Below, piece after piece: positions 14,701 through 54,677 of a stretch of DNA of 64,000 nucleotides (its first letter is position 1; every line of letters begins with the position of its first letter). Source of the stretch: a virus; the IMG/VR virus record IMGVR_UViG_3300007735_000798, positions 32,001 through 96,000 of that record; one strand, written 5' to 3'. A program made the position numbers and the translations under genes. The notes beneath the pieces are model-generated. The model was not told where the DNA came from, did no database searches, and saw only the letters and a list, made by a program, of their open reading frames with translations.

Positions 14701-16310
14701 ATTAAAATATCTCCTTGATAACTATAATTTTCTGTTATTTCATATATTTTTGAGAAAGCATCTTTTTTAATAGTTCTTTTTTCTAACAAGTAATTTTTAT
14801 TTAATATATTATATACAGTTTTAATTCTTTGTAATTCTGAATTAACTTCGCTAATTGCGTAATCAATATTTTTATCTGGTTTCGCAACAGCAGATATATT
14901 TAACTCTAGTTGCGCGAGATTTGCACAATTTATATCTTGAATATTATGCTCTCTTTTTTGGGTAATAGATGATTTTGGTACATAAATAGATATTGATGGA
15001 TTATATTTTAAACTAGACTTCATTGTAATTACATTATCTGAAAAAGGTTTTCTTTTATCAGACCAAGAAGCTGTATATTTAATTTCGGCACCATATTCAT
15101 TAAAAGTAATTGATTCCGTCAGTGGCTGTGAATAAAGACTACGACCAGTAATTTCTTTTTTATATTCAGTATTAGCCAAATTAAAAGCATTAAAATTACC
15201 ACTATAATAATCTTTTACTAATCCCCATCTCGTATTAACGTCTCCATATTTTCCAAAAATTGTGGCATCTAATTTTACAGTAGTAATATTTTTTATAGGA
15301 TCGGTAGTTAAATCAACATTATAATTATTTGTAATATTAGATAATAAGTCGCTATTATAAGTTAAATTAAAATTTAATTTTTGATTATTGAATTCTTCTT
15401 GTACTGATTGGGTAATAGGATTTGAATTTAATGTTGTACCAAACGTTTTTAATGAAGCCTCGTTTGCTATATTATAAAAATTATAGTCAAAAAATCCTGA
15501 TCTTAAATTATTAGAAGTTGTCCCAGTCACAATATTATTACTTAAAGACCCATCAATTTTAACAGTAATAAGCCCATCTTCAATTCCAGAAGAAATATCT
15601 AAATTATAATCAAGAACTGCATTCGCAGGTGACTCCAAAAAATTTGATTTAACATAAGACCCCTCCCAAGAATATGTACCATCAAATCTGTTTACTGTTT
15701 CCTTAATTGATTGTAATAAAAAATTAGAACCATTACCCGTTTGAGCAAATATTGGCGTAATTTTATTATAATTTCCAGTTCTAGTTTTTACCCAATTTTT
15801 AGCACTTTCAATTGCATTTAAATTTCCAGTTTTTAATCCTTTTGCGGATATACTATGTGTTAAATTAACAATAAACCCATTCTCTTCTGAAAAATCAATA
15901 TTCTCTTCTGGGTCCGTTACTCCATAATATTCGGTAAAAAGACCACTTTCATATATTTCAAAATCAATTGTAAAAGGTAAGATTCCATAAAATAATCCTT
16001 CATCCGTTTTAATTGAATCAATAATCACGTTATTGCCAGAAAATAAATTTTCAGAATTTTCATTAATAACTAAAGTACCATAATTATTACTTAATCTATT
16101 AACAAGTAAATTCAAACCACTATTTAATTCATAAAAAGACAATTGTCCTAAATTTTTTCCAGTAATTTGACCATTTAAAGTCATTTTAGTGACTTGATTC
16201 CATTTAGTATTAAAATTAATAAAATCTTGATTTATAGAAATAAAAGGGGTCGGTGATATACCATCAAATAAATCAGTATCATTATATAATATTTTGATAT
16301 TATTATTCAT
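14697..16310 (-). CDS. Distal tail/tail tip protein
   Basis: 537-aa beta-rich ORF after the tape measure; shares NRFDG/NKFDG-type motifs with 16310..18280. Confidence 0.5.
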   Translation of the reverse strand: MNNNIKILYNDTDLFDGISPTPFISINQDFINFNTKWNQVTKMTLNGQITGKNLGQLSFYELNSGLNLLVNRLSNNYGTLVINENSENLFSGNNVIIDSIKTDEGLFYGILPFTIDFEIYESGLFTEYYGVTDPEENIDFSEENGFIVNLTHSISAKGLKTGNLNAIESAKNWVKTRTGNYNKITPIFAQTGNGSNFLLQSIKETVNRFDGTYSWEGSYVKSNFLESPANAVLDYNLDISSGIEDGLITVKIDGSLSNNIVTGTTSNNLRSGFFDYNFYNIANEASLKTFGTTLNSNPITQSVQEEFNNQKLNFNLTYNSDLLSNITNNYNVDLTTDPIKNITTVKLDATIFGKYGDVNTRWGLVKDYYSGNFNAFNLANTEYKKEITGRSLYSQPLTESITFNEYGAEIKYTASWSDKRKPFSDNVITMKSSLKYNPSISIYVPKSSITQKREHNIQDINCANLAQLELNISAVAKPDKNIDYAISEVNSELQRIKTVYNILNKNYLLEKRTIKKDAFSKIYEITENYSYQGDILI

Positions 16311-18280
16311 TATGAATATTTATAAACCTCCTCATAACCTATTATTTGCTCAATTTCATCAGAAGTAAAATTACAAGATTCTAAATATTTACCAGAATTT
16401 CCACCAAAATAATAATTTCTTAGTTGTGTTTTTAAAGTATCAAAATATAATAAACCATTAAAAATTCCCGTTTGACTTGTTAATCCGATATCTGCTTTAC
16501 CTTCTATGGTAAAAGTACCCTGTTGTTTCAAATCTCTATTATGCACTAATTCATATTTATTATTTGGAATTATATATTTTTTAAAATAAGGTGTTAATTG
16601 CGTACCAGAACTTCCATCATCAGAATAAGTAATATCTAATTTTTTGATATCTCCTAAATCTGTTCTAATAGTTGGATCATCAGTATAAGTATAATTATAA
16701 GTAATTTTCCCATCAAATGGCGTTCTTGTTATTTGCTTATCAATTAAATTTATACCACTAGAAGCTTTTTCCAAAGCCTGTCCAGACCAAAAAGATTTTA
16801 ATCTTGACTCTATTCCTGTTTTTACTACTGCCCAGCCAGTTTCTGCACTTAAATATTTTGCAGAATTAATAATAGAATTTTTTTCTCCAACACCAATTAT
16901 TGAACCTTGTTCATTAACACTCCATATGAATTGCTCATTACGATTTAATGTAGAAGTATAATCAAAAATATAATTTTTAGAAAACTTTTTATCATTATTA
17001 AATGACACATCATATTCAATATTTCCATCAAATTTATTTATACGAACTGTTTTTTCAGCCAAAACAGTATTTAAAGCATCAATTATATTAAATTTATTTT
17101 TATAGGCTTGGAAAAAATTATTACAACGTAAATAGGCCCCAGTAATTTCTTTATTTAAACCAATTACGGCATTTTCATATAAACTTGGAATATTATTTTC
17201 AGCTTTAATTGAACAATTTTCACCTACATTAGCTATACCATTATTATCTAATGAAATATTTAAATTTCTATTTATAGAATAAGGTTCTAAATTATTGTTA
17301 GTAGAATAAGAAAAAGTTTTAGTAAATCCACATTTTCCGTTAATAATATCATAAGATTCATTTCTTAATACTTTATAAGTTCCTTCTTGTCTAGTCGAAT
17401 AATTGTATTCTGATAAATTTATTGGAATAGACTTATTTAATAATTCTACGGCTAAACTTTGAGCCAATGTTATTACATTAATATCTTTATTATCAGCATT
17501 ATATTCAATATCTATAGAATGTGTTCCACCTAATATTTTTGTATTATTATCAAAATCAAAAGTAAAATTTTCACTAAAACTTTTTATAAGATCAAATCTT
17601 TTATTTGATAAATTTAAAATATAATCATTATCAATAGCTAAAGTTGTATTACCCGCAAAACCTAAAAATCCAAGAAAAGTTATTCCAGTTGGTGGGGTCA
17701 TTTCACTACTAGACCTTTGAAATCTTGGCGTATTAGAGGATCCAACCCCTGTAACAGGCGATATTCTCCATTGCGTACTAGACGCATTCCACAAAGCATA
17801 TATATTTGTAGTATCATAATAAATTGGTCTAGAATTCAAAATTTGATTTGTTTTATAAAATTTATATCCCGAAAGATTTGGAGATGCACCAGAGGTATTA
17901 CTAACTATATAATTTGAAGAAATGAATTCTTTTGATACTAAACTTTGTAAATTTGCTGTTGTATAAATTTCAATATCTGCATTATATTTTGTAGAACGTA
18001 CCCAATTCCCTTCGTCAAAAGATAATGATGTAATTTTTCCGATACCAAAGTTTTGACCTTTTATTATTATATTATAAAAATTTTGGGCAATATTTTTAAT
18101 TCTATTTACATCTGTAAAAATATCTTTAACTCCGACCGTGTTAGTTAAATCTAAAACATAACCACGAATAGAAAGTGTTTTTGTCGTTGAGTATTGAAAT
18201 GATTTTTCACCCAAAAAATTATTTTGGTGGTTATATCCAAGCACCTCAATGTTATCTAAAATTAATGTTTCAAAAGACAT
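16310..18280 (-). CDS. Distal tail/tail tip protein
   Basis: 656-aa ORF immediately downstream of the tape measure. Confidence 0.5.
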   Translation of the reverse strand: MSFETLILDNIEVLGYNHQNNFLGEKSFQYSTTKTLSIRGYVLDLTNTVGVKDIFTDVNRIKNIAQNFYNIIIKGQNFGIGKITSLSFDEGNWVRSTKYNADIEIYTTANLQSLVSKEFISSNYIVSNTSGASPNLSGYKFYKTNQILNSRPIYYDTTNIYALWNASSTQWRISPVTGVGSSNTPRFQRSSSEMTPPTGITFLGFLGFAGNTTLAIDNDYILNLSNKRFDLIKSFSENFTFDFDNNTKILGGTHSIDIEYNADNKDINVITLAQSLAVELLNKSIPINLSEYNYSTRQEGTYKVLRNESYDIINGKCGFTKTFSYSTNNNLEPYSINRNLNISLDNNGIANVGENCSIKAENNIPSLYENAVIGLNKEITGAYLRCNNFFQAYKNKFNIIDALNTVLAEKTVRINKFDGNIEYDVSFNNDKKFSKNYIFDYTSTLNRNEQFIWSVNEQGSIIGVGEKNSIINSAKYLSAETGWAVVKTGIESRLKSFWSGQALEKASSGINLIDKQITRTPFDGKITYNYTYTDDPTIRTDLGDIKKLDITYSDDGSSGTQLTPYFKKYIIPNNKYELVHNRDLKQQGTFTIEGKADIGLTSQTGIFNGLLYFDTLKTQLRNYYFGGNSGKYLESCNFTSDEIEQIIGYEEVYKYS

Positions 18281-18286: not shown

Positions 18287-21200
18287 TTACGGTTTCGAAG
18301 GCGGAACTTTTATTCCCATTGCACTTTGTATTTCTCTAGTAATTCTTGGAATTTGTTTTTGAATTTCAGCCGCGACAGCTGAAGCTACATCTCCACCACT
18401 TTCGGCATTTACGACAAGATTAATTGGAGCATTTGTTGTATTTGCTATTGATGGTGAATTTATACCTTGATTATTTTGCATATTAGAAGCGTCTGTAGTA
18501 TTTTGTAAACTAGATAAGGAAGTATTAAGATTTTGAATTGCGCTTAGTAATGAAGTCAATGCGCTTGTATTTGTATCTAAACTTGATTCTATTTGCGTAA
18601 AAGACTGTTCTGAGACAGCAAAATTCGGAATATAACCACGACTCATTAATCCCGCAGATTTTTGTCCTATCATTGAGTCATTCAATGCTTTATCTAATCC
18701 GCCATGATCAGCTATTGCAGATGCAAATGTAGGTTGACTACTATTTCTAATATGTGGAAAAGGTTTAGTGCCATAAATAGCTTTATTACCACTAAGGCGT
18801 TCTTCAAGATCCATTACTGAATTTTTGTATGCAAAATTTGGAATAAAGCCACCAGCCAAATTATCAGGTGTGGTCCCAGGTGGTAGTTTACCACTTTTTA
18901 AAAGTTTCTCTTTTAATTTTAGAGTTTGTGCTTCTGCAAATACAGTTCCATTCGTTGAAGATATGAGATCTGGTATCATAGCACCAGTAGTTAGTAGATC
19001 TTTTCCAGCCCCAATACCTAGACTAGTAATCGCCCCATAAACAGCCGCTAATGGATTTTTTCCGATAGCTAGACCACTAGCGGCCCCACCAACAGCAGTT
19101 GAGAATATTTTTTCGAGTTGATCAATATAGGGGTTTTCCGATTTTTTTCCACCATGAAATAAATTATCTAATGCATATTGAGTACTAGCTTCCGCACCAA
19201 TACCAATGGCTCCAGATTTAAATATATTTTTAGCGCTATTCGCTACCGAAGCAAGTTTTGTTGTACTATTAACTTGGAATCTATTCCAAATATCTTCAAA
19301 AAATGGAATAAGGCTATCGAGAGTATCTTCTAATCCAATAGTTCTACCAAATTTCGCATTTTTATTTTCTTCTGCGAAATTTGGAATAAAGCCTTTTGCC
19401 ATACCTATGGCTTTTTGCATATTTCTTGTCAATACGGCTGTTTGACCACTTCCCCCAAAATTATCAACAAGTTTTTCTCCACTATTAATAAAAGCAGGAG
19501 ATCCATTTAAATTTGGAATAAATTGTGGTCGATCTCCAGGTTTTGCCCCTCCAACTCCACGACCGATATCTCGAGATTCTTTATTGTATCCAGGTAAAAA
19601 TCCTTTTGCATTTGATGTCGACTCTACAGATTTATATTTTGCTATTGGTATATAAGGAGTTGGATTTCCAGGCTCCCCTGTTCGTTCTAAAATTTGTTTT
19701 AATATATTGTTTGTAATATTAATTGCTTGTACCGTAGGATCGCTTGAAAGTATTATATCATCTTTATAACTTGTCAGCATCTTTTCTAATGCTTGTTTTT
19801 CTTTGGTGTCGCTTGTAGTTTTTATTTTATCACGAATTTCTTGTAACAGACTTTCATTTGTTACACCAAGCGCTTGCGCTACTTGGATTTTTGCAATGAG
19901 TTCTTCTCCACCCAGCGCTTGTGTTTGTTTTAATGCGGTTAGAAGCTCTGTTTTAAATTGATCAGGTAAATTTTGATTGCCTTGAACCTGTTTTGTCAAT
20001 AATTGTATTTTATTAGTAAGATTTTGAGATAAACCAGCTACAATTTCTTTATAAATTTGACTGTTGGCATCTGGTGTATATCCAGTAAGTTCTTGTAAAG
20101 ATTGAACATATTGTAAAGCATTACGTCCATATTTTGGTAATAATTCTTTTCTAGCTCTTTCTGCTTCTGATCCTTGATATCTATATTCACCAAATTGATT
20201 AGTTCTAAATACCCCTTTAGTATTTAATGCAGCAACTGTATTAGCTGACTTCGCAACTTTATCAAAAGCACTTTCTCCATATTTGGGTGGATTTATAAAT
20301 TCTTCAATGCCACCGCCAAAATTTTGAGCTTGTTTAATTGCATCCACAAGTCTTTTTTGAGTAGTTTCTTGTGCAAGTTTAACTTGTTTTTCTTGTAGCA
20401 ATTTGGCGGCTTCTTCCGCTTTATCATTTCCCTTAGATGTTATACCAATTAGCTCACTTAATTTGTCTTCAAGTGGTTTTCCAAAAAAACCAAGATTATT
20501 CAATAATGGAGTAAATATTTCCGATAAATATTCAGGCTGTAAATTTTTCTTATCTATAATTTCAGAGTTGATTTTTTCTATAAATGCGTCTATAACTGGA
20601 GATTTACCATTTTCTGAAATGTTAAGTCTAGTTCTTAAGTTTTTATCACTGTCTAATTGTTCTTTTGTCGGTAGGACAGCATCATTTATGGCTGTCGCCA
20701 TCTCAACCATTATATCATCAACTGATTGTTCAAAATCAATATTTAATTTTGCAAACTCAGATTTTAGTTCAAAATCTTTTGTCATGCGAGATTCCTGCCC
20801 AGTAAGTTGTGATATAAGTTGTGCTGGATTTGTAAATTGTTCAGTGTACGAAAATTCTCGAGCAAAACTTCTCTTTTTTTGTTCTATAACTATTGATTTT
20901 TTTGCCAAATCAATATTTTTTTGCAATGATTTAATCATTGCTTCATTAGCTTTAGCAGCACTTAATTGTGCATTCTCTGTATCTCTTAAGGCTTGTGCAT
21001 ATTGATTAGAAGATGTTACATTTTGTCTAGTAGCATAATTAGCATCACTAGCAGCCCTCTGAAGAACTATGAGTGTATCGAGATAATCCTGATTAGTTCG
21101 TTTTGCAGCATTTATGGTACTTTCTATAAATTCCGCGCTTCCTACTACACCTCCCAATGAGTCTTCTAATATTGTTTGTAAATCTTTAACTTTTTCTTCT

Positions 21201-24200
21201 AATGGGCGGGCATCTTTTTTATATTCTCCAGTGTCAGGATTTACGCCAGTTAATAACCCTAATTTTTTACCCGTTTCTTCGTCTAATTTTTTTAAAATAG
21301 GCAATGCCTCTTCTCCCTTTTTACCCTGTAAAGCCATTCCAATGAATGTATCTCCAAGAAGTTTTATATTTTTTTCAACATCAGCGGTATCTGTTCCCCT
21401 AAATAAATAGTTATCTCGTCTACTAGCTAATTCACTAACCTTCTCGACATTAGCTCTATTTTCCTCTGCGCGTTGTTTTTCTCCTCTTATTTTTGCCATT
21501 TCTGCTTGTTGCGCAGTTTTTCCTTGTTTGCTTACAATTCTTGCCTGATCTTCTGGTGAAAAATCTGCAAGAGCAGCGGCATATTCATCTTGGGCCTGTT
21601 TTACTTTTTGTGGATTTGGAACGGCTTCACTTAAAGCATTTTTTAAATTTTCGCTAGCAGTTGTTAATCTAGCTGAAGCATCATTAAATTTTGTTAATTC
21701 TTGACTAGCTTTTTCATGTGCGGCAATCGCTTCTGGTAATGTATTATTAAGCTCACTAAAATAATCATTCGCAGCCATAACTCCTCCAGCTATAAGCCCA
21801 ATCGCGCCACCCGCAGCAGCCCCATAAGGACCAAAAGCCAGTCCTAATTGAGCACCAGTAGCTCCTAAACTTAGTGCTTGTCCCGCACCAGTAACAGCTG
21901 CCGCCGTTGCTCGTCCTTGCGGACTTGTCTGTGAAATAGTATTTTTAATAGTGGCCGCAAGAATTGGAGCACCAATTGCTATTGCACTTCCATATGCATC
22001 CGCAGCAGCACCAAATTTTTTTACACCTTTGGCTGAATCACCCAATGCTTGAAGATTTTGTCTATATTGATTTGTTGTTCCACTTAATACATAACTAAGT
22101 CCAACTAATTGAATACTTAACGCACCAAGTGCTGAACTAGTACTTGTAGGCTCTTCTGCATAATTTGGTACAAAACCGCGAGAATACATTCCAATACCTT
22201 TTCGCTCGCGCCCAATAGCATCTTTTAATCCATTTGGTTCATCGCGTGTATTTGTCACAGCAATTGGGTTTCCATTTTTATCAAAATGTGCACGAATTTG
22301 AGAAACTGGAACGCCACGATTAGTAGAAGCAAAATTTGGAATAAAACCTTTCGCCATTCCTCTACTTAAAAATGCTGGAATATCTTTTTCAAAAATTCTA
22401 CCAGGACCATTAGCTTGTTTAATTGGCCAAACAATTTGATCTTTACTTAAAGGTAGTCCATAAACAGAGGCACCACCAGTCTCCATATCTGGAAGTAGTT
22501 CTGAACTTTTTAGTTTATCCCTATTATATCTTACTAACCAAGAACTTTGTTTTCTAGCTGAAGCCCAATTTTTTGCACGACCAATATTTTGTTTATAAGC
22601 TTGCCTATCGCTCATTTTTTCCCCTGGTCGGGAAAGAGCATCCCACATGTAAGTTCCAGAGCCACCAAAATATTCCATAGCAGATTGGTCAGAAGATCTA
22701 TTTCGGAAGGCCCATCCTTTACCGAATTTAGATAACATCATTTTTAATTCTTTGTCATCTACGGCTCTTACGAGTGGTGCTGCAAAATTTGGAATAAAAC
22801 CGCGCGCATAAATTGGAAAATCTTCTTCTCTTTTTAGTTGGCCTTTATTTTCTACATATTTTCTAACCATTTGACTATCAAAAGCGATACCCTTGCCACC
22901 ATGAGTTCTAGATAATCTAAATAAAACTCTTTGAATATCAAATTCTTTTCCTGGAAATTTTTTTAATAATAATTGGTAGACTTTATCATCTACAATTCTT
23001 TTTTTAGGGAAGGTAATTTGTCCATAAGCTCCTTTATAACCTTCTTGTTCTTCATCTGGAGAGGCAAATGCTTGGGCAACTTTTTTATTTTTAGAAGTGC
23101 TCATCATTCGCCAATTAACATCAGTCTCAAAATCTTGAGAAACTTGATCAAAAATAGCATCTTTAATCCCAGTAGGTTCAAAATCATCACCAGGAGTACC
23201 TAACATAGTAAAATCTTTATGTCTATAATCGTCTTTTCTACCAGCTCTTAGATTAAAAATACTTTGTTTATTTAATTTTTTAAAATCTTTTCCAGGAACT
23301 GAAACGCCACGATATAATTTTTCTGTTTGTTCTGATCTGCCTAATTTTTTAATTATAGATAAATATTCTCTTAAAATTTGAGCATCAATTGCTTGGGATT
23401 TAAAATTAGGATTAGTATTAATATCTTTACGTCTTAGTGCTAAATCTTTACCAGTAGCTCTTGGTAAATCTTTAAAGTCAATACCACCCAAAAATTTTGG
23501 TGATGCAAAATTTGGAATAAAACCAAAAGCAGCTCCAGGCCTACGAAGAAACTCCATTTCTTTCATTTTTGTGGCTTGAGATTTAAAACCCATTTTTAAC
23601 GCACGTTCTCCACGAGAACTTCTAGCAAATTGAGTAACTTGATCAAAATCGTTTTTTGTCAAACCATTTTCTTCAAATTGTTTTTGAACATATTTCCAAT
23701 CTCCGATTTTTAATGCATCGACATTAAAAGATCTCCCAAGCCAACCTTCACCCAACGCTCTAGATAAAGCTTCAATTTTAGCACGACCCTTTAGTGGGAA
23801 TCCAGGTTGTTTTAGAAAAGCGTCTAAACCAGAAGTATTAACGCCCAATTTTGTTGCGGCTTTTATATAAGCATTATTCGATAAACCACTACCCTCCGAT
23901 AACTTAGTAGATATATTAGGATTAGTTATTCTACTATTTATAATTTCTATTAATTTTGAATTTGCAAAATTTGGAACAAAACCAGCAGCCATACCTTTTG
24001 ATCTACTAATTCTTGCCATTTCTTCTTTAATTGCTTTTTCTAGTTGTGGTCCTCTTCTTAGATTTTGTCCTTGAAGATTTTTTAAAGCTTCTGTTCTTAA
24101 TGCTTGTGATTGCTTATAACCAGCACCACTTTTTACTTGCTTTACTTCTCCAACTTTAGCTTCTTGTAGTAACTTGCTCATTACATCATTAACTAATTCT

Positions 24201-27181
24201 GGAGAATATTTAGCATCATACATTCCAGGAGCACCATGAAATAGATTTCTTAGTTTAGGGGTTATTCTATTTTGACGAAAATCAATTCCTGCATTTTGAG
24301 AAGTTTTTTGTAAATTTTGTTGAAGTAAAGTAAGTAAACCACCTTCAAAAGCAACGCCAACAGCCCCTTTTGCCGCACCAAAATTTGGAAGGTCTTGTGC
24401 TGATTTTAAGAAATTACCCCCGCCAATTGCTTGACCAAATTGATTTGCCTCACGAACTAATAGGTCACCTAAATTTTTATCTAAATCTGGAAGTTCGCCC
24501 TTAAGAACTTGCTTATTAATTCCAGCTACGGGAATTAAACCTTTATATTGTTGTCCTAAATAACTTGCTGTTGCTGGGGTCATCGAATATCCTTCAGAAA
24601 CCCCTGGATGAATTAGAGAAACAACTTTGCCTTTTAATGCTGGAGAAGTTGTTGTATCTCCAAGATCAATCAAATTTTTTCCTTGCGCAAAATTTGGAAT
24701 AAAACCAGAAGCACGATTTTTAAATTTTGATGCAATTATATTTGCAGCAGAAGCTCGCACTTTAGGATCGTTAAAATTTTTACCTTTTCCAGCAACATTT
24801 CCAAAAAGAGTTTTTCTATCAATATTTCTAACAGAATCAATTAGAATGTTTGATAAAAATAAAGAATCTCCTTTTTCGAGACCAGAATTTTTAAAAACTG
24901 AAGAATTAGCAACGCTAGGATTTTTCTTTAAAATTGCCCCAACACCAGCACGTAAATTTACTATTTTATCACGATTACCATCTCCTGGAACTAAAATTGA
25001 TCCACCACTTCCAGGTGGAATTACTTGATTTCCAAGAATTTGTGACCCCGAAAGTCTTAATATTTTAGATATATAACTAGCTTTATTACCTTCAGATTCG
25101 CTTAATTTTGCATCTCCATATAATGTTCTTCTATTAATACCAAGAAGATTTTTAACTTCTGGATTTACTCTTGCGCTAGATAATACGTTTGGTGCAAAAT
25201 CTATAATATCAGAATCTTCTAAATAAGCTTTTTTAAGACCTAATGATAAAGCAATAGCATTGTCAAAAACTTTACCAGCAGCAAAACTTTTTTGATATTG
25301 AGATATATTTTTTTCATTTGCAAAATTTGGAATATATCCTTTCGCCGCCATTTGTACACCATTTCCATACATTGGAATAACCATTGAATCACCATTACTA
25401 CCAACTCCAGGATATTCAATTTCTTGGTTATTCATTACAAATTTTTTACCACCGATTGTACCTTGCGACATGTGTGGCCGAACAGAAGGAGTTGCACCTA
25501 AAGCAATTGCCTGTGCTTTTTCAATTTGCTTATCCGAAGCAAAATTTGGAATATAACCAGCGGCTTTACCAGTTTTTTTCGTTGGCGCTATTGGTACTCC
25601 GCCAGTAACACGAACTCCAGCACCATAAAACGCTTTAGAAATTTGCGCTGCCACCGCAGCTTGTTTTTGTAATTCAACAGTTTGTTTTTGTAAATTTGCT
25701 AACAAACTATTAGCGGCAGCATTCAAACCCTGCTCACCTTTTAAAGCAAGTTCAAGAAGCTGTGGATTTTTAGATAAAATTTGATTGATACTTTGTTGTA
25801 AACTTTGTTGTTGTACTGCGGCCTGATTTAAACCAAGAAGTTGTTGGACACTTCCAGTTGCAAATTTCCCTAAATCACGAAAAAGTTTAAGTAATACTCC
25901 CCCAATAATTGCTAAACCAGGACCCGCAATAAATTGAGCCAAACCATCTATAATACCTTTACCAAGTGCAGATCCAACTCCAGTTCCTTCAGATTCGTTT
26001 ACCCCACCCAATATTTTATTAGCTCCACCGACAACACGTTCGAATGCTGGACCGAGTAAACGGTTTCCAGCCGTTGCCGCTAATTGTGTGGCATTTTGTT
26101 TTAATGTATTAATTTGTGCGGCATAAGTTTTATTTAGCGCGTCATTTCTTTTAACGGCTTCGTCTGTAGAACTAGCTGCAACATTTAAAGCGCTATTATA
26201 AATAGAATATTCTTTACCTAAATCAGCAAGAGCGGCTTTTAAAATGTTAATTTGAAAAACACCACCAACCTGTTCGGCTACATAAGCTTGTTGTTGCGCT
26301 CCAAGAGTATCATAAACCTTACCTAAATCTTGCAATAATTGAATTGTAGATTTTAATTGTCCAGAACTATCAGTAGTACTTATTCCTAAACTTCCTAAAA
26401 GATCTTGAACCTTACCACGTTCTAAACGTGTAAAAATTGTTTTAAATGAGTTACCAATTACAGCGCCACCGCGTGCAGTAGTTTGCTGTGCTGATGTGAC
26501 AATAGCAATAAGTTCATTAAGTGAAACCCCAGATTGTGCAGCACTACTACCAACACGACTAATAGCTTCTGCAAGATCCGCCGAACTAACTGCGAAAGCA
26601 GCATCAACATTAGCAAATTTATTTACAACTTCACTAGCGGTTACAGCTTGACTCGCAAAAGAATTGACTGCGGCAGTAAGGGCTTCAACACTTTTTGCCG
26701 CATCAAGACCACTTAAACGTGAAAGAATAAGAGCTTCATTAGTACGTTTTAATGTTTCTGCGACACCCAAACCTTGACGAGAAAATTCTGTAGCTGCTTT
26801 GGCTACTTCTTGAAACCCCTGTCCAGTATTTTTAGCAATATTAAACAATTCACCACCAAATTTTTGTAATTGTGAGGCTGAAACATTTAATATAACATTA
26901 ATATCTTGTAAAGATTTTTGTACTTCAATAGTAGATGAAACTAATGCGCTGAAAGCTTTTTCTAAACCATATATAATTCCAGCACTTGCTCCGAATGCGA
27001 TAACACGGGCATTAGATGCATCTAATGATTTTGTAAATTCATTAACTTGCCCAGTAATACGCCCCAAAGGCTGATCGCCTTTAGTTTTTAAGTTAATAGA
27101 ATAAACTTTATTGACAGTTCTTTGAATATCTCTGTCTAATTGCCTAGTATTTCCACCAATATCTAATGTAATAGCAGCCAT
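18287..27181 (-). CDS. Tape measure protein carrying multiple inserted domains separated by G[FY][IV]PN[FY]A motifs
   Basis: N-terminal TP901-type TMP core (EVAKAATEFSRQG..GAVIGNSFKTIFTRL), Ala/Gly-rich hydrophobic helices, coiled coils, position after tail tube and chaperones, 2964 aa. Confidence 0.9.
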   Translation of the reverse strand: MAAITLDIGGNTRQLDRDIQRTVNKVYSINLKTKGDQPLGRITGQVNEFTKSLDASNARVIAFGASAGIIYGLEKAFSALVSSTIEVQKSLQDINVILNVSASQLQKFGGELFNIAKNTGQGFQEVAKAATEFSRQGLGVAETLKRTNEALILSRLSGLDAAKSVEALTAAVNSFASQAVTASEVVNKFANVDAAFAVSSADLAEAISRVGSSAAQSGVSLNELIAIVTSAQQTTARGGAVIGNSFKTIFTRLERGKVQDLLGSLGISTTDSSGQLKSTIQLLQDLGKVYDTLGAQQQAYVAEQVGGVFQINILKAALADLGKEYSIYNSALNVAASSTDEAVKRNDALNKTYAAQINTLKQNATQLAATAGNRLLGPAFERVVGGANKILGGVNESEGTGVGSALGKGIIDGLAQFIAGPGLAIIGGVLLKLFRDLGKFATGSVQQLLGLNQAAVQQQSLQQSINQILSKNPQLLELALKGEQGLNAAANSLLANLQKQTVELQKQAAVAAQISKAFYGAGVRVTGGVPIAPTKKTGKAAGYIPNFASDKQIEKAQAIALGATPSVRPHMSQGTIGGKKFVMNNQEIEYPGVGSNGDSMVIPMYGNGVQMAAKGYIPNFANEKNISQYQKSFAAGKVFDNAIALSLGLKKAYLEDSDIIDFAPNVLSSARVNPEVKNLLGINRRTLYGDAKLSESEGNKASYISKILRLSGSQILGNQVIPPGSGGSILVPGDGNRDKIVNLRAGVGAILKKNPSVANSSVFKNSGLEKGDSLFLSNILIDSVRNIDRKTLFGNVAGKGKNFNDPKVRASAANIIASKFKNRASGFIPNFAQGKNLIDLGDTTTSPALKGKVVSLIHPGVSEGYSMTPATASYLGQQYKGLIPVAGINKQVLKGELPDLDKNLGDLLVREANQFGQAIGGGNFLKSAQDLPNFGAAKGAVGVAFEGGLLTLLQQNLQKTSQNAGIDFRQNRITPKLRNLFHGAPGMYDAKYSPELVNDVMSKLLQEAKVGEVKQVKSGAGYKQSQALRTEALKNLQGQNLRRGPQLEKAIKEEMARISRSKGMAAGFVPNFANSKLIEIINSRITNPNISTKLSEGSGLSNNAYIKAATKLGVNTSGLDAFLKQPGFPLKGRAKIEALSRALGEGWLGRSFNVDALKIGDWKYVQKQFEENGLTKNDFDQVTQFARSSRGERALKMGFKSQATKMKEMEFLRRPGAAFGFIPNFASPKFLGGIDFKDLPRATGKDLALRRKDINTNPNFKSQAIDAQILREYLSIIKKLGRSEQTEKLYRGVSVPGKDFKKLNKQSIFNLRAGRKDDYRHKDFTMLGTPGDDFEPTGIKDAIFDQVSQDFETDVNWRMMSTSKNKKVAQAFASPDEEQEGYKGAYGQITFPKKRIVDDKVYQLLLKKFPGKEFDIQRVLFRLSRTHGGKGIAFDSQMVRKYVENKGQLKREEDFPIYARGFIPNFAAPLVRAVDDKELKMMLSKFGKGWAFRNRSSDQSAMEYFGGSGTYMWDALSRPGEKMSDRQAYKQNIGRAKNWASARKQSSWLVRYNRDKLKSSELLPDMETGGASVYGLPLSKDQIVWPIKQANGPGRIFEKDIPAFLSRGMAKGFIPNFASTNRGVPVSQIRAHFDKNGNPIAVTNTRDEPNGLKDAIGRERKGIGMYSRGFVPNYAEEPTSTSSALGALSIQLVGLSYVLSGTTNQYRQNLQALGDSAKGVKKFGAAADAYGSAIAIGAPILAATIKNTISQTSPQGRATAAAVTGAGQALSLGATGAQLGLAFGPYGAAAGGAIGLIAGGVMAANDYFSELNNTLPEAIAAHEKASQELTKFNDASARLTTASENLKNALSEAVPNPQKVKQAQDEYAAALADFSPEDQARIVSKQGKTAQQAEMAKIRGEKQRAEENRANVEKVSELASRRDNYLFRGTDTADVEKNIKLLGDTFIGMALQGKKGEEALPILKKLDEETGKKLGLLTGVNPDTGEYKKDARPLEEKVKDLQTILEDSLGGVVGSAEFIESTINAAKRTNQDYLDTLIVLQRAASDANYATRQNVTSSNQYAQALRDTENAQLSAAKANEAMIKSLQKNIDLAKKSIVIEQKKRSFAREFSYTEQFTNPAQLISQLTGQESRMTKDFELKSEFAKLNIDFEQSVDDIMVEMATAINDAVLPTKEQLDSDKNLRTRLNISENGKSPVIDAFIEKINSEIIDKKNLQPEYLSEIFTPLLNNLGFFGKPLEDKLSELIGITSKGNDKAEEAAKLLQEKQVKLAQETTQKRLVDAIKQAQNFGGGIEEFINPPKYGESAFDKVAKSANTVAALNTKGVFRTNQFGEYRYQGSEAERARKELLPKYGRNALQYVQSLQELTGYTPDANSQIYKEIVAGLSQNLTNKIQLLTKQVQGNQNLPDQFKTELLTALKQTQALGGEELIAKIQVAQALGVTNESLLQEIRDKIKTTSDTKEKQALEKMLTSYKDDIILSSDPTVQAINITNNILKQILERTGEPGNPTPYIPIAKYKSVESTSNAKGFLPGYNKESRDIGRGVGGAKPGDRPQFIPNLNGSPAFINSGEKLVDNFGGSGQTAVLTRNMQKAIGMAKGFIPNFAEENKNAKFGRTIGLEDTLDSLIPFFEDIWNRFQVNSTTKLASVANSAKNIFKSGAIGIGAEASTQYALDNLFHGGKKSENPYIDQLEKIFSTAVGGAASGLAIGKNPLAAVYGAITSLGIGAGKDLLTTGAMIPDLISSTNGTVFAEAQTLKLKEKLLKSGKLPPGTTPDNLAGGFIPNFAYKNSVMDLEERLSGNKAIYGTKPFPHIRNSSQPTFASAIADHGGLDKALNDSMIGQKSAGLMSRGYIPNFAVSEQSFTQIESSLDTNTSALTSLLSAIQNLNTSLSSLQNTTDASNMQNNQGINSPSIANTTNAPINLVVNAESGGDVASAVAAEIQKQIPRITREIQSAMGIKVPPSKP
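18618..25558 (-). repeat. 11 dispersed copies of the motif encoding G[FY][IV]PN[FY]A
   Basis: Copies start (plus-strand coordinates) at 18618, 18831, 19374, 22158, 22329, 22782, 23505, 23964, 24687, 25320 and 25539. Four are the identical 20-mer GCAAAATTTGGAATAAAACC. Confidence 0.95.
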
Positions 27182-27219: not shown

Positions 27220-28239
27220 TTAATTATTTTCGCGCGCTTTAAAATAATCAGATTTTTCAAGTGTTCCACCCTGTTCTGCGGCTAATTCTAATAAACTTTT
27301 ACCCTTTAATTTTTCTATTTTTACACCTAATTGATTTAAATCTTCTTTTGTAGCCCCCACAAAACTATGAACAGAATTATCTCCATTTCCAGATTTTCTA
27401 TTTTTAGATTTTATACCAGGTATATTTGATTGATTATCAACCCATTGAACAAATTTATCTGGATCATTTACTATTTCATCTAAAATTGGTTTACCATTTT
27501 CTGCATGATTTTTTATTATATTTCTATACATTTTACCATACAAAATAAGATCAATTTGATATTTTGTACAATTAACCGTTGATTTTCCCCAAAAACTGTA
27601 AGCATCTTCGCTTAAATATACAAGATTTTGAAAGAAACCACTTGCAGCAATTCTTTTAATATTATCAGTATTAAATATATTTGAATATGTTTCAAAAGCA
27701 TTTTTAATTTTATCTAGATCCTCTTCTTTTAAATCATAATATTCTTCCCTATTATTGAATAGTTTTTCTGAAAATTCTATATTTTTATAACTAAAAAAAA
27801 ATAATAAATCTTCCGTTAATTTACTATTTGCGTAATCTTCCAAAGTATAACCAACAATTTCTCTACGTTCTTTTGTATAAGTAATTAAAATAGCTTGATT
27901 TTGTTTTATTTGTTTATCAATTTGCTCTTTCTGGGATGATAAAAATAATTTATCTCTAGTTTTATATAAATTTTGTATAGTTTTTTTTAAAAGAGAAATT
28001 GTAGATTCTTTTTCTGATGCCCACCAGCCACCTTTAATAGCAATCTCTATTTTTTCTTTTTCTGATTGGAGGCCCTTTTTTTGTCCATCACTAATAAAAA
28101 TATCATAATTAGTATATACTGAAAAATGTTCAGCGATACTTGGATGTTTAAAATAAATATATGATTTATTTATTTTTTCTTCAGAAAAGCCTCTGCATAT
28201 TTGGCTGTAAATTCTACCATATTCTGCATTTTTATCCAC
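27220..28239 (-). CDS. Probable tail assembly chaperone
   Basis: Helical 339-aa ORF immediately upstream of the tape measure. Confidence 0.5.
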   Translation of the reverse strand: MDKNAEYGRIYSQICRGFSEEKINKSYIYFKHPSIAEHFSVYTNYDIFISDGQKKGLQSEKEKIEIAIKGGWWASEKESTISLLKKTIQNLYKTRDKLFLSSQKEQIDKQIKQNQAILITYTKERREIVGYTLEDYANSKLTEDLLFFFSYKNIEFSEKLFNNREEYYDLKEEDLDKIKNAFETYSNIFNTDNIKRIAASGFFQNLVYLSEDAYSFWGKSTVNCTKYQIDLILYGKMYRNIIKNHAENGKPILDEIVNDPDKFVQWVDNQSNIPGIKSKNRKSGNGDNSVHSFVGATKEDLNQLGVKIEKLKGKSLLELAAEQGGTLEKSDYFKARENN

Positions 28240-28240
28240 A

Positions 28241-29041
28241 TTAACTTGGTTTTATTTCTTCTACGAGAACACTATTTTCTTTAACATTTTCTTCAATTTT
28301 ATTTTCGATGGGATTTTCTTCAATATTGCTTACAGTATTCTCTTTCAAGAAGTTTTTATCAAAAGCTGCAAAATCTTCATTTGTATCTACACGACCTAGA
28401 AACCAAAGCGTGACTAAATAAGTTATTCTACGAATAACACCTAATAAAAATTCATACTTATTTTCTTCTTCTTCTTCAAAACTATCATATTGCAAAAGTT
28501 TTTCTTCAAATGTATCACCTTTAAAAATAGATTTATAATTATCTCCATCTTTTTCGTATGAAAGATTCATGACCCACCAAAGAATTGCACGATTACGAGC
28601 TTTTGCTTCCGCAGTATTTTCAAAAATACTTATTTGAGAAGCTTCAAAATTTTGAATAGCTTTACGAATATCATCAAGATTATTAATTAATTCATCAGAA
28701 CGAATTTTTTCTGCATCCGTCCTTTCAGACTCTCCTTTGATTAGAATTGATTGTAATTCAAAAGAAAGATCACGAAATTTTAAAAGAAGATTTCCATATT
28801 CTTCGCGTTCTTGATCACTAATACTACCGCCCCCATTGGAAAGAATAGTACCCCAAGCAGCTTTTGGTAACACCCCTGCCTTTGCAAAACGCGATGTTTC
28901 GGTGGCATAAAAAAGTTCTCCATCTTCACGTAAACGACGATTTGGTTTGAGTAACCCAAATTTTTTAACGATAGTTTCTTGACTACCATCTTCTTTTTTT
29001 ACAACATTGTTTGCCTCAAATTCGTATAGCCATTTATTCAT
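28241..29041 (-). CDS. Probable tail assembly chaperone
   Basis: Acidic helical ORF between the tail tube and the tape measure. Confidence 0.5.
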   Translation of the reverse strand: MNKWLYEFEANNVVKKEDGSQETIVKKFGLLKPNRRLREDGELFYATETSRFAKAGVLPKAAWGTILSNGGGSISDQEREEYGNLLLKFRDLSFELQSILIKGESERTDAEKIRSDELINNLDDIRKAIQNFEASQISIFENTAEAKARNRAILWWVMNLSYEKDGDNYKSIFKGDTFEEKLLQYDSFEEEEENKYEFLLGVIRRITYLVTLWFLGRVDTNEDFAAFDKNFLKENTVSNIEENPIENKIEENVKENSVLVEEIKPS

Positions 29042-29370: not shown

Positions 29371-30507
29371 TTATACTCCTTGCGGTGTTGGAGGAGGATT
29401 ATAACTGCCAGATAAAAAGATACCTCTATCTGTTTGTTGAGCACTACCAACCTGTACTTCAAATGTCGCACTCATTGTAGCCCCATCACCGATAGCAGAA
29501 CTAAAGTTTTGGCTTGTTAATTTAGCGCCTCTAAATTCATATGTAAGGGCATTGGCTCCAGTTCCGCCACAAGCAGGTTTTTTCATTGTAATTACGAAAT
29601 TATTTAAATTTGTATCACAAAGTAATGACGATAGATCTCCAGTGCCGTTTGATAAGTCGCCAACTTGAGCATTCATAGTTAATGTAGCTGTAAGTGGGAA
29701 ATCAATTTCACGAGAGAATGCGTAGCGACTACCTAATTTTTGAAGTGGTGTACGCCCAATATCAACTGCTAATGAAAAGTCTTGAACTTTTAAATCAACA
29801 GGGTCAAAACCTAATAAACCAGTTGGTGTAAACGTAATATCACCAGGAAGCAATGCATTTGGAATTGAAGATCCAGTCATGGAAGTAGCTGCTGGAAGTT
29901 TAAATTTAACTCCTGTTAATAGTTGACCATCAGCGGCATTAACACCTGGAGCAACTGCCCCACTCCCACCTGGACTTGCGGCATTAAGATCTCCATAAAT
30001 ACGAACATTCAATCCTTCAATTTCAACGTCAGCACTTGGAATATCACCAACAGCAGCATTAACTGTATATGAAGTTAAGAAGCCATTTCCAATACCAATT
30101 ACGCCAGTTCTTGCGCTAGTATAGCCAGCAGCATCATTACCTTCGTCAGCAATCATTAAATAATAATTTTTTTGATCAGTTGCTCTTGTCAAAAGTCCAG
30201 AAATAATAGAAGCATTACCAGCCGAACCAGTCGTCGCACTAGTTAAACCCAAAAGTCTTTCATTAAGACCGTCAGTCAAATAGTATGAAAAACTTGCTGT
30301 TACAGTTGGAGCTTCTACCTCTAAACGATCAATAGCGGCTAAATTTCCAAATTGATTGACATCTTGGAAAGTGCGTGTAAAATCTTCATCGAAACTTTGA
30401 ACACGACCTAATTGTTGAACGGCTCCAAGACCAGTTTGTTGTCCAGTTGGAGAGACTTGACTCGCATAAAGAGCCAATACATTGTAAATTGTTCTATTTC
30501 TTGCCAT
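29371..30507 (-). CDS. Major tail tube protein
   Basis: 378 aa, Gly/Thr/Ala-rich, highly expressed codon style, own terminator; RVQSF..DVNQFG, RTPLQKLGSRYAFSR. Confidence 0.75.
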   Translation of the reverse strand: MARNRTIYNVLALYASQVSPTGQQTGLGAVQQLGRVQSFDEDFTRTFQDVNQFGNLAAIDRLEVEAPTVTASFSYYLTDGLNERLLGLTSATTGSAGNASIISGLLTRATDQKNYYLMIADEGNDAAGYTSARTGVIGIGNGFLTSYTVNAAVGDIPSADVEIEGLNVRIYGDLNAASPGGSGAVAPGVNAADGQLLTGVKFKLPAATSMTGSSIPNALLPGDITFTPTGLLGFDPVDLKVQDFSLAVDIGRTPLQKLGSRYAFSREIDFPLTATLTMNAQVGDLSNGTGDLSSLLCDTNLNNFVITMKKPACGGTGANALTYEFRGAKLTSQNFSSAIGDGATMSATFEVQVGSAQQTDRGIFLSGSYNPPPTPQGV

Positions 30508-30550
30508 AATTATAATTACATCTTATTTTTTTGTTAGACACTCGATATTT

Positions 30551-31411: not shown

Positions 31412-31989
31412 TTAATTTTTCCTCCTAATTTTTTTATGAAATTATTATATAATGGAGTAAAATATGATATTCTAGTAAATACTTTTCCACGAAAATTTTT
31501 TCTTGACTGAATTGCTTTTCCAGAACGCGAATTTTCAAATTTACCATATAGATAAGCACCTAATCCAGATATTGATTTTTCTACTCCCCATAGCCAACTT
31601 CTATTTTCCCATGGCATTTTACTTGCATTACCGAAATCTTCTTTTGAAGGAACATAAATATTTACTACAAAATTATTTTTATTAAATAATATTTTTTTAT
31701 TAATCTTTATATTATTCAATAATGACAATATTGGAGCAATTGGGTTCGAACTATTAGAAAAACCAATGAATGAAAATAAATTTCCATAACCACCTAAAGT
31801 TCCAGATAAATTACTAGCATTTTCTCCACCCTCAATTTCTTGAGTAACAGGATGTTCTTTAAATTTTGTAATTAGAATATTTTTTTCAGCTTCTACCGAA
31901 GCATTGGCAATTTGTAAAACTTTTTTTTGAACATTTGAATTTTCAAAAATTATTTTTTTTAAAGCTTGTTTATCTATTTTTCCAGCCAT
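31408..31989 (-). CDS. Probable neck/tail completion protein
   Basis: Basic 193-aa ORF in the head-tail joining region. Confidence 0.45.
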   Translation of the reverse strand: MAGKIDKQALKKIIFENSNVQKKVLQIANASVEAEKNILITKFKEHPVTQEIEGGENASNLSGTLGGYGNLFSFIGFSNSSNPIAPILSLLNNIKINKKILFNKNNFVVNIYVPSKEDFGNASKMPWENRSWLWGVEKSISGLGAYLYGKFENSRSGKAIQSRKNFRGKVFTRISYFTPLYNNFIKKLGGKIK

Positions 31990-31990
31990 A

Positions 31991-32422: not shown

Positions 32423-32423
32423 A

Positions 32424-32960: not shown

Positions 32961-32980
32961 ATAATATTTTACACAAAAAA

Positions 32981-35170: not shown

Positions 35171-36985
35171 TTATTTGATTTTTACGCTGTTTTTATTGAA
35201 AGCAGCATTGATTTTATCAACCAATGTTACTTCTTGAGGAGAGGAAGCGTTCGGAAGGACTTCTTCCTTTGCCTCTACACTCGAAATTACTTCTTCTACA
35301 GTCTTCTCTTCGCTAGCGACGATTTCAGCAGCTTTTTCTTCTTTCATTTCTTTTTTAGCTGGTTCGCCTTCTTTCATAGCTTCTTGTTTTACAACTTTAG
35401 CTGATTTCTTTTTAGCTGCGGCAAATGTAGAAAACTTTTTATACCATTTCTCAAATTGTTCATCATTTTCAATGGCGTTTAAATCTTCAGCGATGATACT
35501 ACGATCTTCATCGGTAAGATCAAATTCTTCATCAAGTAAACTCATTCTACGTTGGAAATTGGCTTCAATTTCTTTTGCTTTAAGATCTTCTTGAATTTTT
35601 GTGAACTCTTCTTTTACTTTTTCGCTATCGGCCTTGATTGCTTCGAGATCTGTTTTCAATGTTGAGATTTGATCTTCTGCTGCTTTAAGAGCGGTTTCTT
35701 TTTCTTCAACTTTTGATTTCCATTCTTGAGCGAGTTCTGCGATGCGGTTTGAAATAAATTCACGAACGGCACTAGCAGCAACTTCCTTGATGGAATCATC
35801 CGTAATATCATCAATATTTTTTAGTTGCATATTAATTTTTACATTATTATTTTCTTGTTGGACACTTTTTTTATTCATTTTAATTTCAGAAGATTCAATA
35901 TTATTATTTTCGTCTTCCATTTCATTATAATCTTCGCATCCACATTCTGGACATGTTTCGGCTTTAATTCCTTTATATCCACATTTGGCGCAAGCATATT
36001 TTGCGTCTTTCATTTCTTCTGCTTTAATATTTTCTTGTGGTTTATCATAAGAAATAACAACTCCACTAACTTCTGCGGCTGGAGTATTTGTAAATCCGAT
36101 TCCTAATGGGAGAACACTACCTTGTAAATTTAAAAGAACAATTTCGCCATCTTCTGTAACTCCATTACCACCAAATACTTTAAGACGATCTTTTAATTCT
36201 ACAATTTTATCTTCATCTTCAATAATAGTGGCTTCTGCTAAATTTTTACTACCTTTAGCAACATTAAATTCATTAAAGCCAAGTTCCCAACTTGCACTAA
36301 CTGAAAGATATTGATCAGATGAAGGATCACTACTACTAACGAGTTCAGCAGCAAATTCTGGATTGACAATTTTCCACACATATCCAGAAAGAACAACATT
36401 AAATGGATCTTTCATTGCCTTAACTTCTTCAAGAGTTAAAGGTTTACTACTACCAAATTCACTAAATCCATAACCAGTACAAACGCCCACAACAACTTTA
36501 CGATTATGTTCAATATTAAATGGTTTATTAATAAAATTTTCAACCATTGCAAGTGCAACGTCAGTACTAATTATATGACCATTTTTATTTCCACGATTAA
36601 CAACGAAAGCATCAAATGCAACGCCCATTAAATCACGATTAACATCAAGGTCTACATTTTTTGGAAGATATTGTTTTAATTGATCGATTGAGGCCACGGC
36701 CAAATATTTATCTTCATCAAAAGGAACCATTGCTTGAACAATAATCCCGTCAAATTTAATTGAATATTTAAAATCTTTCATTGTATCCATTTGTAAATTT
36801 ACACTTTGTTCTTCTAATAGGGCAACATTTTTGAGTTTATTACCAATGATAATTTTATTATTTTCACATTTATTAATTTGCATAGCACATAAAGAAATTG
36901 GGCGAGTAAATGAAACTAATAAGTCCGACAAATCAAATTCTGATTGCGTATCAATATTTTCTGGAAGATCTTCGTATGTAGGCAT
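35171..36985 (-). CDS. Prohead protease fused to scaffold coiled coil
   Basis: NKNGH..KPFNIEHNR..VSASWELGF protease-like N-half, CxxC-CxxC knuckle, acidic coiled-coil C-half. Confidence 0.75.
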   Translation of the reverse strand: MPTYEDLPENIDTQSEFDLSDLLVSFTRPISLCAMQINKCENNKIIIGNKLKNVALLEEQSVNLQMDTMKDFKYSIKFDGIIVQAMVPFDEDKYLAVASIDQLKQYLPKNVDLDVNRDLMGVAFDAFVVNRGNKNGHIISTDVALAMVENFINKPFNIEHNRKVVVGVCTGYGFSEFGSSKPLTLEEVKAMKDPFNVVLSGYVWKIVNPEFAAELVSSSDPSSDQYLSVSASWELGFNEFNVAKGSKNLAEATIIEDEDKIVELKDRLKVFGGNGVTEDGEIVLLNLQGSVLPLGIGFTNTPAAEVSGVVISYDKPQENIKAEEMKDAKYACAKCGYKGIKAETCPECGCEDYNEMEDENNNIESSEIKMNKKSVQQENNNVKINMQLKNIDDITDDSIKEVAASAVREFISNRIAELAQEWKSKVEEKETALKAAEDQISTLKTDLEAIKADSEKVKEEFTKIQEDLKAKEIEANFQRRMSLLDEEFDLTDEDRSIIAEDLNAIENDEQFEKWYKKFSTFAAAKKKSAKVVKQEAMKEGEPAKKEMKEEKAAEIVASEEKTVEEVISSVEAKEEVLPNASSPQEVTLVDKINAAFNKNSVKIK

Positions 36986-54086: not shown

Positions 54087-54677
54087 TTGATGTCGTCTTT
54101 AATCAATTCACAAGTGTTCGATATCATCAAAGAAGATATTGAATCTCTTGATGGTCGTATTATATTATTAAAAGGAAATTATTGTGGTGGTAAAAGTAAA
54201 TGTTCTGGTCTTTTTTATATGGACGCAGAAGATAATCCTGTAATTAAAGTAGCAAAAGGATCTTTAAAAGAAGAAGAATGGTTTGGCGTTTTAATTCATG
54301 AATATTGCCATTTTTTACAGTGGAGAGATAATTCGTTGCTATGGGATAATTTTTGTGATCATGATATTACTTATTCACAAATTTTATTAAAACCACAAAA
54401 ATACAAAAAAGAATTAGTTGCACTTTTTGAATTAGAAATCAATTGTGAAAAATTAGCAGTAAAAATTATAAAAAATAATAATTTATTTGATCATAAATAT
54501 TATGCTCGAACAGCTAATAGCATATTATATAAATATGCAATGTTATATAAATACGATAAGTGGCCAGAAGATAACAGGAAATATAAAAAAGTAGAAGAAT
54601 TTTGCCCTAATAAAATTTTAAAGTCTTACAAAGAATATTTAAATATTCCAGAAAAAATTTATAATTATTATAAATAA
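54087..54677 (+). CDS. Putative zincin metallopeptidase (HExxH)
   Basis: VLIHEYCHFLQW..ELEINCE. Confidence 0.65.
   Translation: MMSSLINSQVFDIIKEDIESLDGRIILLKGNYCGGKSKCSGLFYMDAEDNPVIKVAKGSLKEEEWFGVLIHEYCHFLQWRDNSLLWDNFCDHDITYSQILLKPQKYKKELVALFELEINCEKLAVKIIKNNNLFDHKYYARTANSILYKYAMLYKYDKWPEDNRKYKKVEEFCPNKILKSYKEYLNIPEKIYNYYK

Follow-up and report, generated by a model that had tools for sequence, protein, structure and literature searches.

Tape measure proteins (TMPs) of tailed phages are usually viewed as rulers and channel formers. One TMP-fused enzyme acting inside the host cell was known beforehand, the virion RNA polymerase joined to the 5002-amino-acid (aa) TMP gp96 of Thermus phage P23-45 (Chaban et al. 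2024, PMC10770324), and TMP cutting was known from T5 and lambda without a catalyst or site rules: in T5 pb2 the cut follows R1127 and falls between hydrophobic stretch and peptidase domain, the fragment remaining in the tail (PMC10038345), whilst lambda gpH is cut after tail assembly, with catalyst and site unknown (PMC12617516). Polyvalent proteins are large proteins of many domains in variable arrangement, presumed to enter the host along with the DNA (Iyer et al. 2017, PMC5512222; PMC7824862); ADP-ribosyltransferase (ART) and GNAT domains recur in them, and release by self-proteolysis, via an embedded zincin-like peptidase, has been proposed (PMC5512222). The T4 ADP-ribosyltransferase Alt and the acetyltransferase Rac are likewise injected from the virion, and reprogram the host RNA polymerase (PMC7824862). 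Here we describe a giant TMP gene in a 64,000-nt stretch of viral DNA (positions 32,001 to 96,000 of IMG/VR record IMGVR_UViG_3300007735_000798; hereafter the window), the product of which carries a well-supported array of variable modules delimited by a short repeated peptide.

The source record is a 104.7-kb viral sequence from IMG/VR (CheckV completeness estimate, 69%); complete relatives with terminal repeats measure 166 and 178 kb, and the phage carrying the gene is an uncultured tailed phage of approximately 150–180 kb. The TMP gene (18287..27181, minus strand) consists of a single open frame encoding 2964 aa. Judged by its profile matches, the protein is a TMP of the TP901/PF10145 family, as a sequence-only reading of the window had also concluded: PF10145 (PhageMin_Tail) matches aa 116–307 with 96.9 bits (cut-off 33.2; E 1.9e-27), thirteen TMP families of the PHROG collection match as well, and all of these matches fall within aa 11–470. 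The closest cultured TMP is SPbeta YomI, with 26–27% identity restricted to the N-terminal core; the middle part of the protein (aa 542–1668, hereafter the middle array) matched none of 50,697 phage records in a tblastn search.

The pattern G[FY][IVL]P[NG][FY] occurs 12 times in the TMP, as 11 canonical copies of G[FY][IV]PN[FY]A and one degenerate copy:

25538..25558, minus strand: motif copy 1, GYIPNFA, aa 542–548
25319..25339, minus strand: motif copy 2, GYIPNFA, aa 615–621
24686..24706, minus strand: motif copy 3, GFIPNFA, aa 826–832, in a linker of low model confidence
23963..23983, minus strand: motif copy 4, GFVPNFA, aa 1067–1073, in a linker of low model confidence
23504..23524, minus strand: motif copy 5, GFIPNFA, aa 1220–1226
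22781..22801, minus strand: motif copy 6, GFIPNFA, aa 1461–1467
22328..22348, minus strand: motif copy 7, GFIPNFA, aa 1612–1618
22157..22177, minus strand: motif copy 8, GFVPNYA, aa 1669–1675
19583..19603, minus strand: degenerate copy, GFLPGYN, aa 2527–2533 (GFLPGY at 19586–19603)
19373..19393, minus strand: motif copy 9, GFIPNFA, aa 2597–2603
18830..18850, minus strand: motif copy 10, GFIPNFA, aa 2778–2784
18617..18637, minus strand: motif copy 11, GYIPNFA, aa 2849–2855

Successive starts lie 73, 211, 241, 153, 241, 151, 57, 858, 70, 181 and 71 aa apart. Both the number of copies and their spacing agree with the sequence-only reading, and no match arose in 2000 shuffles of the protein. Position −2 is alanine or serine in 12 of 12 copies, position −1 is A, K, S, R, F or G, and a further, very degenerate copy (QFIPNL) stands at aa 2554.

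The motif is confined to the TMP: it was absent elsewhere from a six-frame translation of the window and from the rest of the 104.7-kb record, and a degenerate DNA pattern for it hit the TMP gene only, in the record itself, in two complete genomes (178 and 166 kb) and in two further clade records that are incomplete. Its third codon positions vary (GGT/GGA/GGC/GGG, CCA/CCT/CCG/CCC, ATT/ATC/ATA/GTT/GTA) with the residues held constant, both within and between phages, which indicates that selection acts on the peptide itself. The copies in the TMP gene do share 18–21 nearly identical bases, as the preferred codons of an AT-rich gene would give. A literature search for the motif string returned no relevant paper.

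A family search with aa 540–1680 as the query found 284 matching proteins, all of them giant (1630–4064 aa) and nearly all with PF10145; 121 were retrieved for comparison. All but one of the retrieved proteins (120/121) carry the motif two or more times (median 5, maximum 12), and 627 distinct instances from the 121 proteins define the consensus [KAF]-[AS]-x-G-[FY]-[IV]-P-N-F-A, in which G and P are present in 100%, N in 98% and F in 96% of instances. Conservation is confined to positions −3 to +6, with none beyond. TMP-like proteins that are 38% identical in the N-terminal core have no motif copies at all.

Modules were defined by cutting every protein at the motif and clustering the pieces; whole-protein MAFFT alignments for multi-module queries misaligned the shuffled modules and were discarded. 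The relatives share a plan in which a core of about 545 aa is followed by a small module (about 70–90 aa), a variable module of about 210 aa and a module of about 240 aa, termed C1, after which come optional cassettes, a second small module, a long C-terminal part and often a second array. There are 60 clusters of 100–700-aa modules and 77 distinct mid-array architectures in the 121 proteins. The TMP studied here has 12 fenced segments, its principal parts being the following:

25559..27181, minus strand: N-terminal TMP core, module C0, aa 1–541, with PF10145; 81–88% identical to relatives
25340..25558, minus strand: small module C4, aa 542–614, which opens the middle array; defined by clustering, nearest relative 97% identical
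24707..25339, minus strand: module C9, aa 615–825, with a nuclease-like residue pattern D..GDAK
23984..24706, minus strand: module C1, aa 826–1066, a compact alpha/beta domain as modelled; present in 106 of 121 relatives
23525..23983, minus strand: module C8, aa 1067–1219, in 17 of 121 relatives, at varying positions
22802..23524, minus strand: module C25, aa 1220–1460, ADP-ribosyltransferase-like by residue pattern only
22349..22801, minus strand: module C10, aa 1461–1611, preceding or following C1 in 13 of 121 relatives; nearest relative 92% identical
22178..22348, minus strand: small module C2, aa 1612–1668, which closes the middle array; nearest relative 98% identical
19604..22177, minus strand: long acidic helix-rich part C3, aa 1669–2526 (858 aa; isoelectric point (pI) 5.5)
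21767..22141, minus strand: hydrophobic glycine-rich cluster, aa 1681–1805, immediately after the middle array; from a hydropathy scan
18290..19603, minus strand: C-terminal second array, aa 2527–2964, made up of small, 181-aa, small and 116-aa modules

When the TMP was compared with its relatives by BLAST, 82% of homology blocks started, and 71% ended, within 15 aa of a motif copy (16% expected), with starts peaking at −2/−3 and ends at +6, counted from the motif. Six different proteins supply the nearest relatives of the seven middle modules, the identities for modules 1–7 in order being 97, 74, 87, 90, 99, 92 and 98%; in these same six proteins the N-terminal core is 81–88% identical and the part after the array at most 37%. 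A different nearest relative for each module, on a backbone of 81–88% identity, shows directly that cassettes have recently been exchanged at the motif. Module order also varies, C25 following C8 here, preceding C8 in one relative and preceding C1 in two others. By sequence comparison, then, the fencing peptide is where modules come and go, change their order and pass between phages. The variation in number, identity and order between motifs, beside a conserved N-terminal flank, is what the sequence-only reading had proposed to look for among homologues. Fetching the loci of rare modules from viral and metagenome contigs yielded few or none. The relatives P0078–P0093 form a sub-clade whose arrays are unusually long, reaching about 12 modules, and include the GNAT module C13 and the recurrent unknown modules C20, C27, C11 and C28.

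The middle segments are basic, in keeping with the earlier description of them (pI 8.3–10.4, summed net charge +61), as compared with the pI of 5.5 for the 858 aa that follow; the modules are basic family-wide, with a median pI of 9.7 and 93% above 8.5. The middle array is flanked by hydrophobic stretches, one inside the N-terminal core (aa 409–435; hydropathy scan) and the other the glycine-rich cluster at aa 1681–1805, which has a weak match to the glycine zipper of C19orf12. Searched against PDB sequences, C3 gave helical-bundle matches only. C3 is at most 37% identical to any relative, and the N-terminal 541 aa are 81–88% identical, so that the two ends of the TMP differ strongly in history or rate. 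In the C-terminal array, motif copies at aa 2527, 2597, 2778 and 2849 delimit modules, and different modules occupy this place in relatives.

Module C1 and its neighbour C9 were modelled together with AlphaFold2, over aa 615–1073, from a 43-row alignment in which the register was checked. In this model aa 835–1064 form a four-stranded sheet with six helices (predicted local distance difference test score, pLDDT, 70–92), which we confidently take to be a compact alpha/beta domain and not a TMP helix. All three motif copies in the modelled region fall in stretches with pLDDT below 50, suggesting that the motifs behave as linkers. C9 (aa 615–825) is poorly predicted. C1 has invariant F-E, I-D-F and Y-x-A-K (43 rows), C9 has invariant D47, G75, D76, A77 and K78 (segment numbering, 12 rows), and the two modules are related to each other by hhalign (94.9% over 69 columns). 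The ordered pattern E...D...(D/E)-x-K is found in both, an order that is that of PD-(D/E)xK nucleases, and we describe both as nuclease-like in this sense; the stretch of C1 that carries the invariant D is of low confidence in the model. Neither Foldseek (PDB and BFVD) nor two VIA runs gave a significant fold match for the 459-residue two-module model, although the VIA lists were filled by a helical hairpin (model residues 400–459), so that the core of C1 was barely tested; the fold search that the sequence-only reading had suggested thus returned no identification. An ESM Atlas search with C1 was uninformative, and no stand-alone homologue of C1 of 132–422 aa was found.

Module C25 may be an R-S-E-type ADP-ribosyltransferase; we regard it as ART-like and unconfirmed. 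Its five members keep YRG, [ST]S[ST]S..K..A..F and a late E-x-[DE]; the third ART motif reads E-x-D here and E-x-E in two relatives, and lies about six residues before the next fencing motif. A language-model search with C25 returned ART clusters at 0.89–0.91, and no ART profile matched C25 or the genome at E≤10 (Pfam; PF03496 and PF18760 on the genome). C25 is 99% identical to a module of its nearest relative, P0004, and has only four alignable homologues; the AlphaFold2 model from these five sequences had a pLDDT of 35.8 and was unusable. The N-terminal half of C25 is related by hhalign to C8 (93%). Segments between motifs had been described as globular-looking: this holds, as modelled, for aa 835–1064, but could not be upheld for C9, given its poor model, or for C25.

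The small-module families are mutually related by hhalign, and C2 has invariant NP..V.N..DEP (10 rows). Small modules (about 55–90 aa; here aa 542–614, 1612–1668, 2527–2596 and 2778–2848) always open and close the cassette arrays, and the family with invariant NP..V.N..DEP could be a partner or adaptor of the fencing peptide. Modules 4–6 of the middle array, searched against 1.84 billion representatives, had 12 homologues, all of them giant TMPs. Searches of single segments gave nothing meaningful in Pfam at E≤10, and PDB sequence searches with single segments and family profiles gave chance or helical-bundle matches only. Across 21 diverse relatives a single enzyme family was recognised, GNAT, in module C13 (28.9 bits, cut-off 20.7), a module found in 11 relatives and absent from the TMP studied. 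No peptidase family, zincin-like ones included, was detected in the TMP or in the 21 scanned relatives. For the earlier suggestion that several segments are enzymes or effectors, family-level support comes only from GNAT in relatives; Pfam, PDB-sequence and ART profile searches lent it no support in the TMP studied.

We consider the best overall explanation to be a TMP with exchangeable cassettes that carries a protein payload, to which we assign a probability of roughly 0.55. In this phage clade, two regions of the TMP, aa 542–1668 and the C-terminal 440 aa, have been turned into cassette arrays. As part of the TMP, the modules would be carried inside the tail lumen in an extended, non-native state, would be expelled with it at infection just before the DNA, and would then target host components or the incoming end of the DNA; the set would include a GNAT acetyltransferase in relatives and, here, one ART-like and two nuclease-like modules. 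Effector cargo in the TMP studied is plausible, if thinly supported. The peptide would serve as a universal joint making any module compatible with the tail, and its 21-nt coding stretch would also offer microhomology for cassette exchange. Our preferred reading of the peptide is, by analogy, as a processing site, and we hold it tentatively, at somewhat short of even odds: it may be cut after tail assembly or upon ejection, freeing the modules from a backbone that inserts into the membrane. Cleavage is plausible because TMPs undergo processing in T5 and lambda, and alanine or serine at −2 with glycine at 0 would, speculatively, suit a cut adjoining the glycine. A stronger form, in which the peptide is a self-sufficient signal for processing and loading, and exchangeable acetyltransferase, ART-like and nuclease-like modules are cut free on entry before the DNA, appears doubtful to us.

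Several considerations weigh against a processed payload. Neither the TMP nor the open reading frames (ORFs) at 35171..36985 and 54087..54677 yielded a protease domain; the sequence-only reading had put forward these two ORFs as proteases, a proposal for which we found no support, there being no protease signal for either in Pfam, PHROGs or PDB sequences. Most of the genome is without family assignment, so a cognate protease may exist. No motif sites occur in head or other virion proteins, though a general maturation protease would be expected to have them. Cutting every copy would sever the ruler, and any cutting must therefore be late, when a protease could hardly get into the lumen of the assembled tube. 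Most protease sites need fewer than seven nearly invariant, largely aromatic residues, and such a set would suit a docking peptide as well. The restriction of modules 4–6 to TMPs, and the lack of a stand-alone form of C1, fit structural parts of the TMP equally well, and the presence of C1 in 106 of 121 proteins gives it the look of a core function and not of optional cargo. By our estimate, three copies of folded 150–240-aa domains exceed a 4-nm lumen. Delivery, enzyme activity and cleavage are all proposals.

Directly upstream of the TMP gene lie two conserved genes that bear on how the peptide might be used:

27220..29041, minus strand: conserved gene pair (266 aa and 339 aa) adjoining the TMP gene on its upstream side; noted for its position

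Their products are 30–89% identical between phages and directly precede the TMP in all motif-bearing loci. They belong to no Pfam or PHROG family and show no frameshift signature, the downstream frame being closed upstream; we regard them as candidate tail-assembly chaperones by position only. In motif-less outgroup loci, several kb separate the matched TMP-like gene from homologues of the pair, which are found downstream of it; this placement suggests that those phages have a second PF10145 protein.

The main rival reading, in our view rather unlikely, is that the TMP remains uncut and that the peptide is an assembly handle, docking to the chaperone-like upstream proteins, to the tube lumen or to other TMP chains. 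Docking would hold the non-helical modules extended and keep tube polymerisation in register, each cassette bringing its own handle. The chaperones of lambda reportedly bind multiple sites along gpH. An aromatic and hydrophobic motif with invariant proline and asparagine, placed in disordered linkers, is typical of docking peptides; the motif is exclusive to the TMP, in motif-bearing phages the TMP gene invariably comes after two conserved genes without a family, and length measurement needs an intact TMP. The chaperone-like partners, however, are candidates by gene position only, the upstream proteins have homologues in motif-less relatives too, and the irregular spacing of the copies (57–858 aa) is unrelated to any tube repeat.

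Less probable still is a reading of the modules as working parts integral to the TMP, and of the peptide as a conserved hinge, with the variation reflecting host adaptation; basic, nuclease-like domains would then hold or pilot the DNA end, and others would aid envelope crossing. C1 and the small bracketing modules are indeed nearly universal, the modules searched (4–6 and C1) have no relatives outside TMPs, their basic character is as DNA contact would predict, and no enzyme family was detected in the TMP studied. Yet optional modules are freely gained, lost and reordered, which is unusual for structural parts; one exchange is very recent (99% identity on an 86% backbone); relatives carry a GNAT enzyme module; and a mere hinge would not require seven invariant residues. 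That the motif is kept mainly as a crossover site in the DNA, encoding a functionless peptide, would agree with the 18–21 nearly identical bases shared among copies and with homology blocks that break at the motif. The shared bases are, however, the preferred codons of an AT-rich gene, and third positions vary with the residues constant; a purely DNA-level role is rejected on this synonymous variation, and we give a mainly DNA-level one very little credence.

In the rest of the window, nearly all structural-region proteins (16310–18280, 29371–36985 and most other ORFs) are without a Pfam or PHROG family, the likely capsid, tube and distal tail proteins being among them; the clade is very distant from cultured phages. 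In the same strand block as the TMP, a 1391-aa protein (41353–45528, minus strand) has repeated BppL_N (lower baseplate protein N-terminal) motifs (E 2.8e-26) and is probably a receptor-binding or baseplate protein. Between 59000 and 64000, and continuing past the end of the window, the GC content rises to 0.48–0.50, as compared with 0.25–0.35 for the genome, and only short frames are present. This region has at least 12 promoter-like cassettes (AAAAAATC-c-TTGACT, about 17 nt, TATcCT, with ATGAAA a few bases later) and paired 31-nt elements (GTAAGTCCTTGATAATCAACGACTTAC-like), 50 nt apart. It is found in four related phages with 67–87% DNA identity and many repeats, and has no counterpart in the outgroup. 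In appearance it resembles an early region in which many small genes each have a strong promoter of their own. It has no Rfam or tRNA match, and rRNA or tRNA was rejected as the source of the high GC content.

If the payload explanation is right, the exchange of dozens of module types at one invariant peptide, across hundreds of giant TMPs, would mark the tail lumen as an evolvable cargo bay, and some 60 uncharacterised module families would be added to the candidate counter-defence and takeover proteins of phages. The fencing peptide itself would offer studies of TMP processing or chaperoning a concrete sequence to work with. Were it a processing signal, it would be the first defined recognition sequence for tape-measure processing and part of a natural plug-and-play system of protein delivery; were it sufficient by itself for loading or release, chosen proteins could be loaded into phage tails in laboratory systems.

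The closest parallels to this TMP differ from it in instructive ways. P23-45 gp96 is likewise a giant TMP, with an enzyme that acts inside the host, and the middle array is N-terminal to a hydrophobic cluster much as the RNA polymerase of gp96 is N-terminal to its membrane and peptidase regions; gp96, however, is a single fixed N-terminal fusion, with no exchangeable cassettes, no fencing motif and no sequence relation to the protein described here. T5 pb2 and lambda gpH undergo one cut near the C-terminus, once the tail is assembled, as against up to 12 candidate sites in the giant TMPs, and share no known site sequence with the fencing motif, at which cleavage is a candidate event only. The sequence-only reading knew of no comparable TMP; a motif-fenced array was indeed not found in the literature, but the enzyme fusion of P23-45 gp96 and the cutting of T5 pb2 are partial precedents (PMC10770324, PMC10038345). 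SPbeta YomI, an annotated transglycosylase, shows that an enzyme domain can be embedded in a TP901/PF10145-type TMP. Cell-wall hydrolases embedded in TMPs belong to recognisable families that act on peptidoglycan, whereas none was detected here.

With polyvalent proteins, the TMP shares a giant polypeptide of many independent modules in highly variable combinations: its 12 segments, and the 77 architectures in 121 proteins, correspond to the 2–15 independent domains and highly variable architectures by which polyvalent proteins are recognised, whilst a conserved site at each domain boundary is a feature shared with viral polyproteins that have repeated cleavage sites. Polyvalent proteins are not tape measures (the term does not appear in PMC5512222), and no repeated fencing peptide has been described for them; conversely, their zincin-like peptidase was not found here, and most modules match no known conflict domain. 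T4 Alt is a free head protein and not part of a TMP, and the ART assignment made here is unconfirmed; the enzyme classes of Alt and Rac are nevertheless present (GNAT, in relatives) or suspected (ART) among the modules. No description of such an architecture was found in the searched literature; it is unusual, and is kin both to the enzymes embedded in other TMPs and to the polyvalent proteins.

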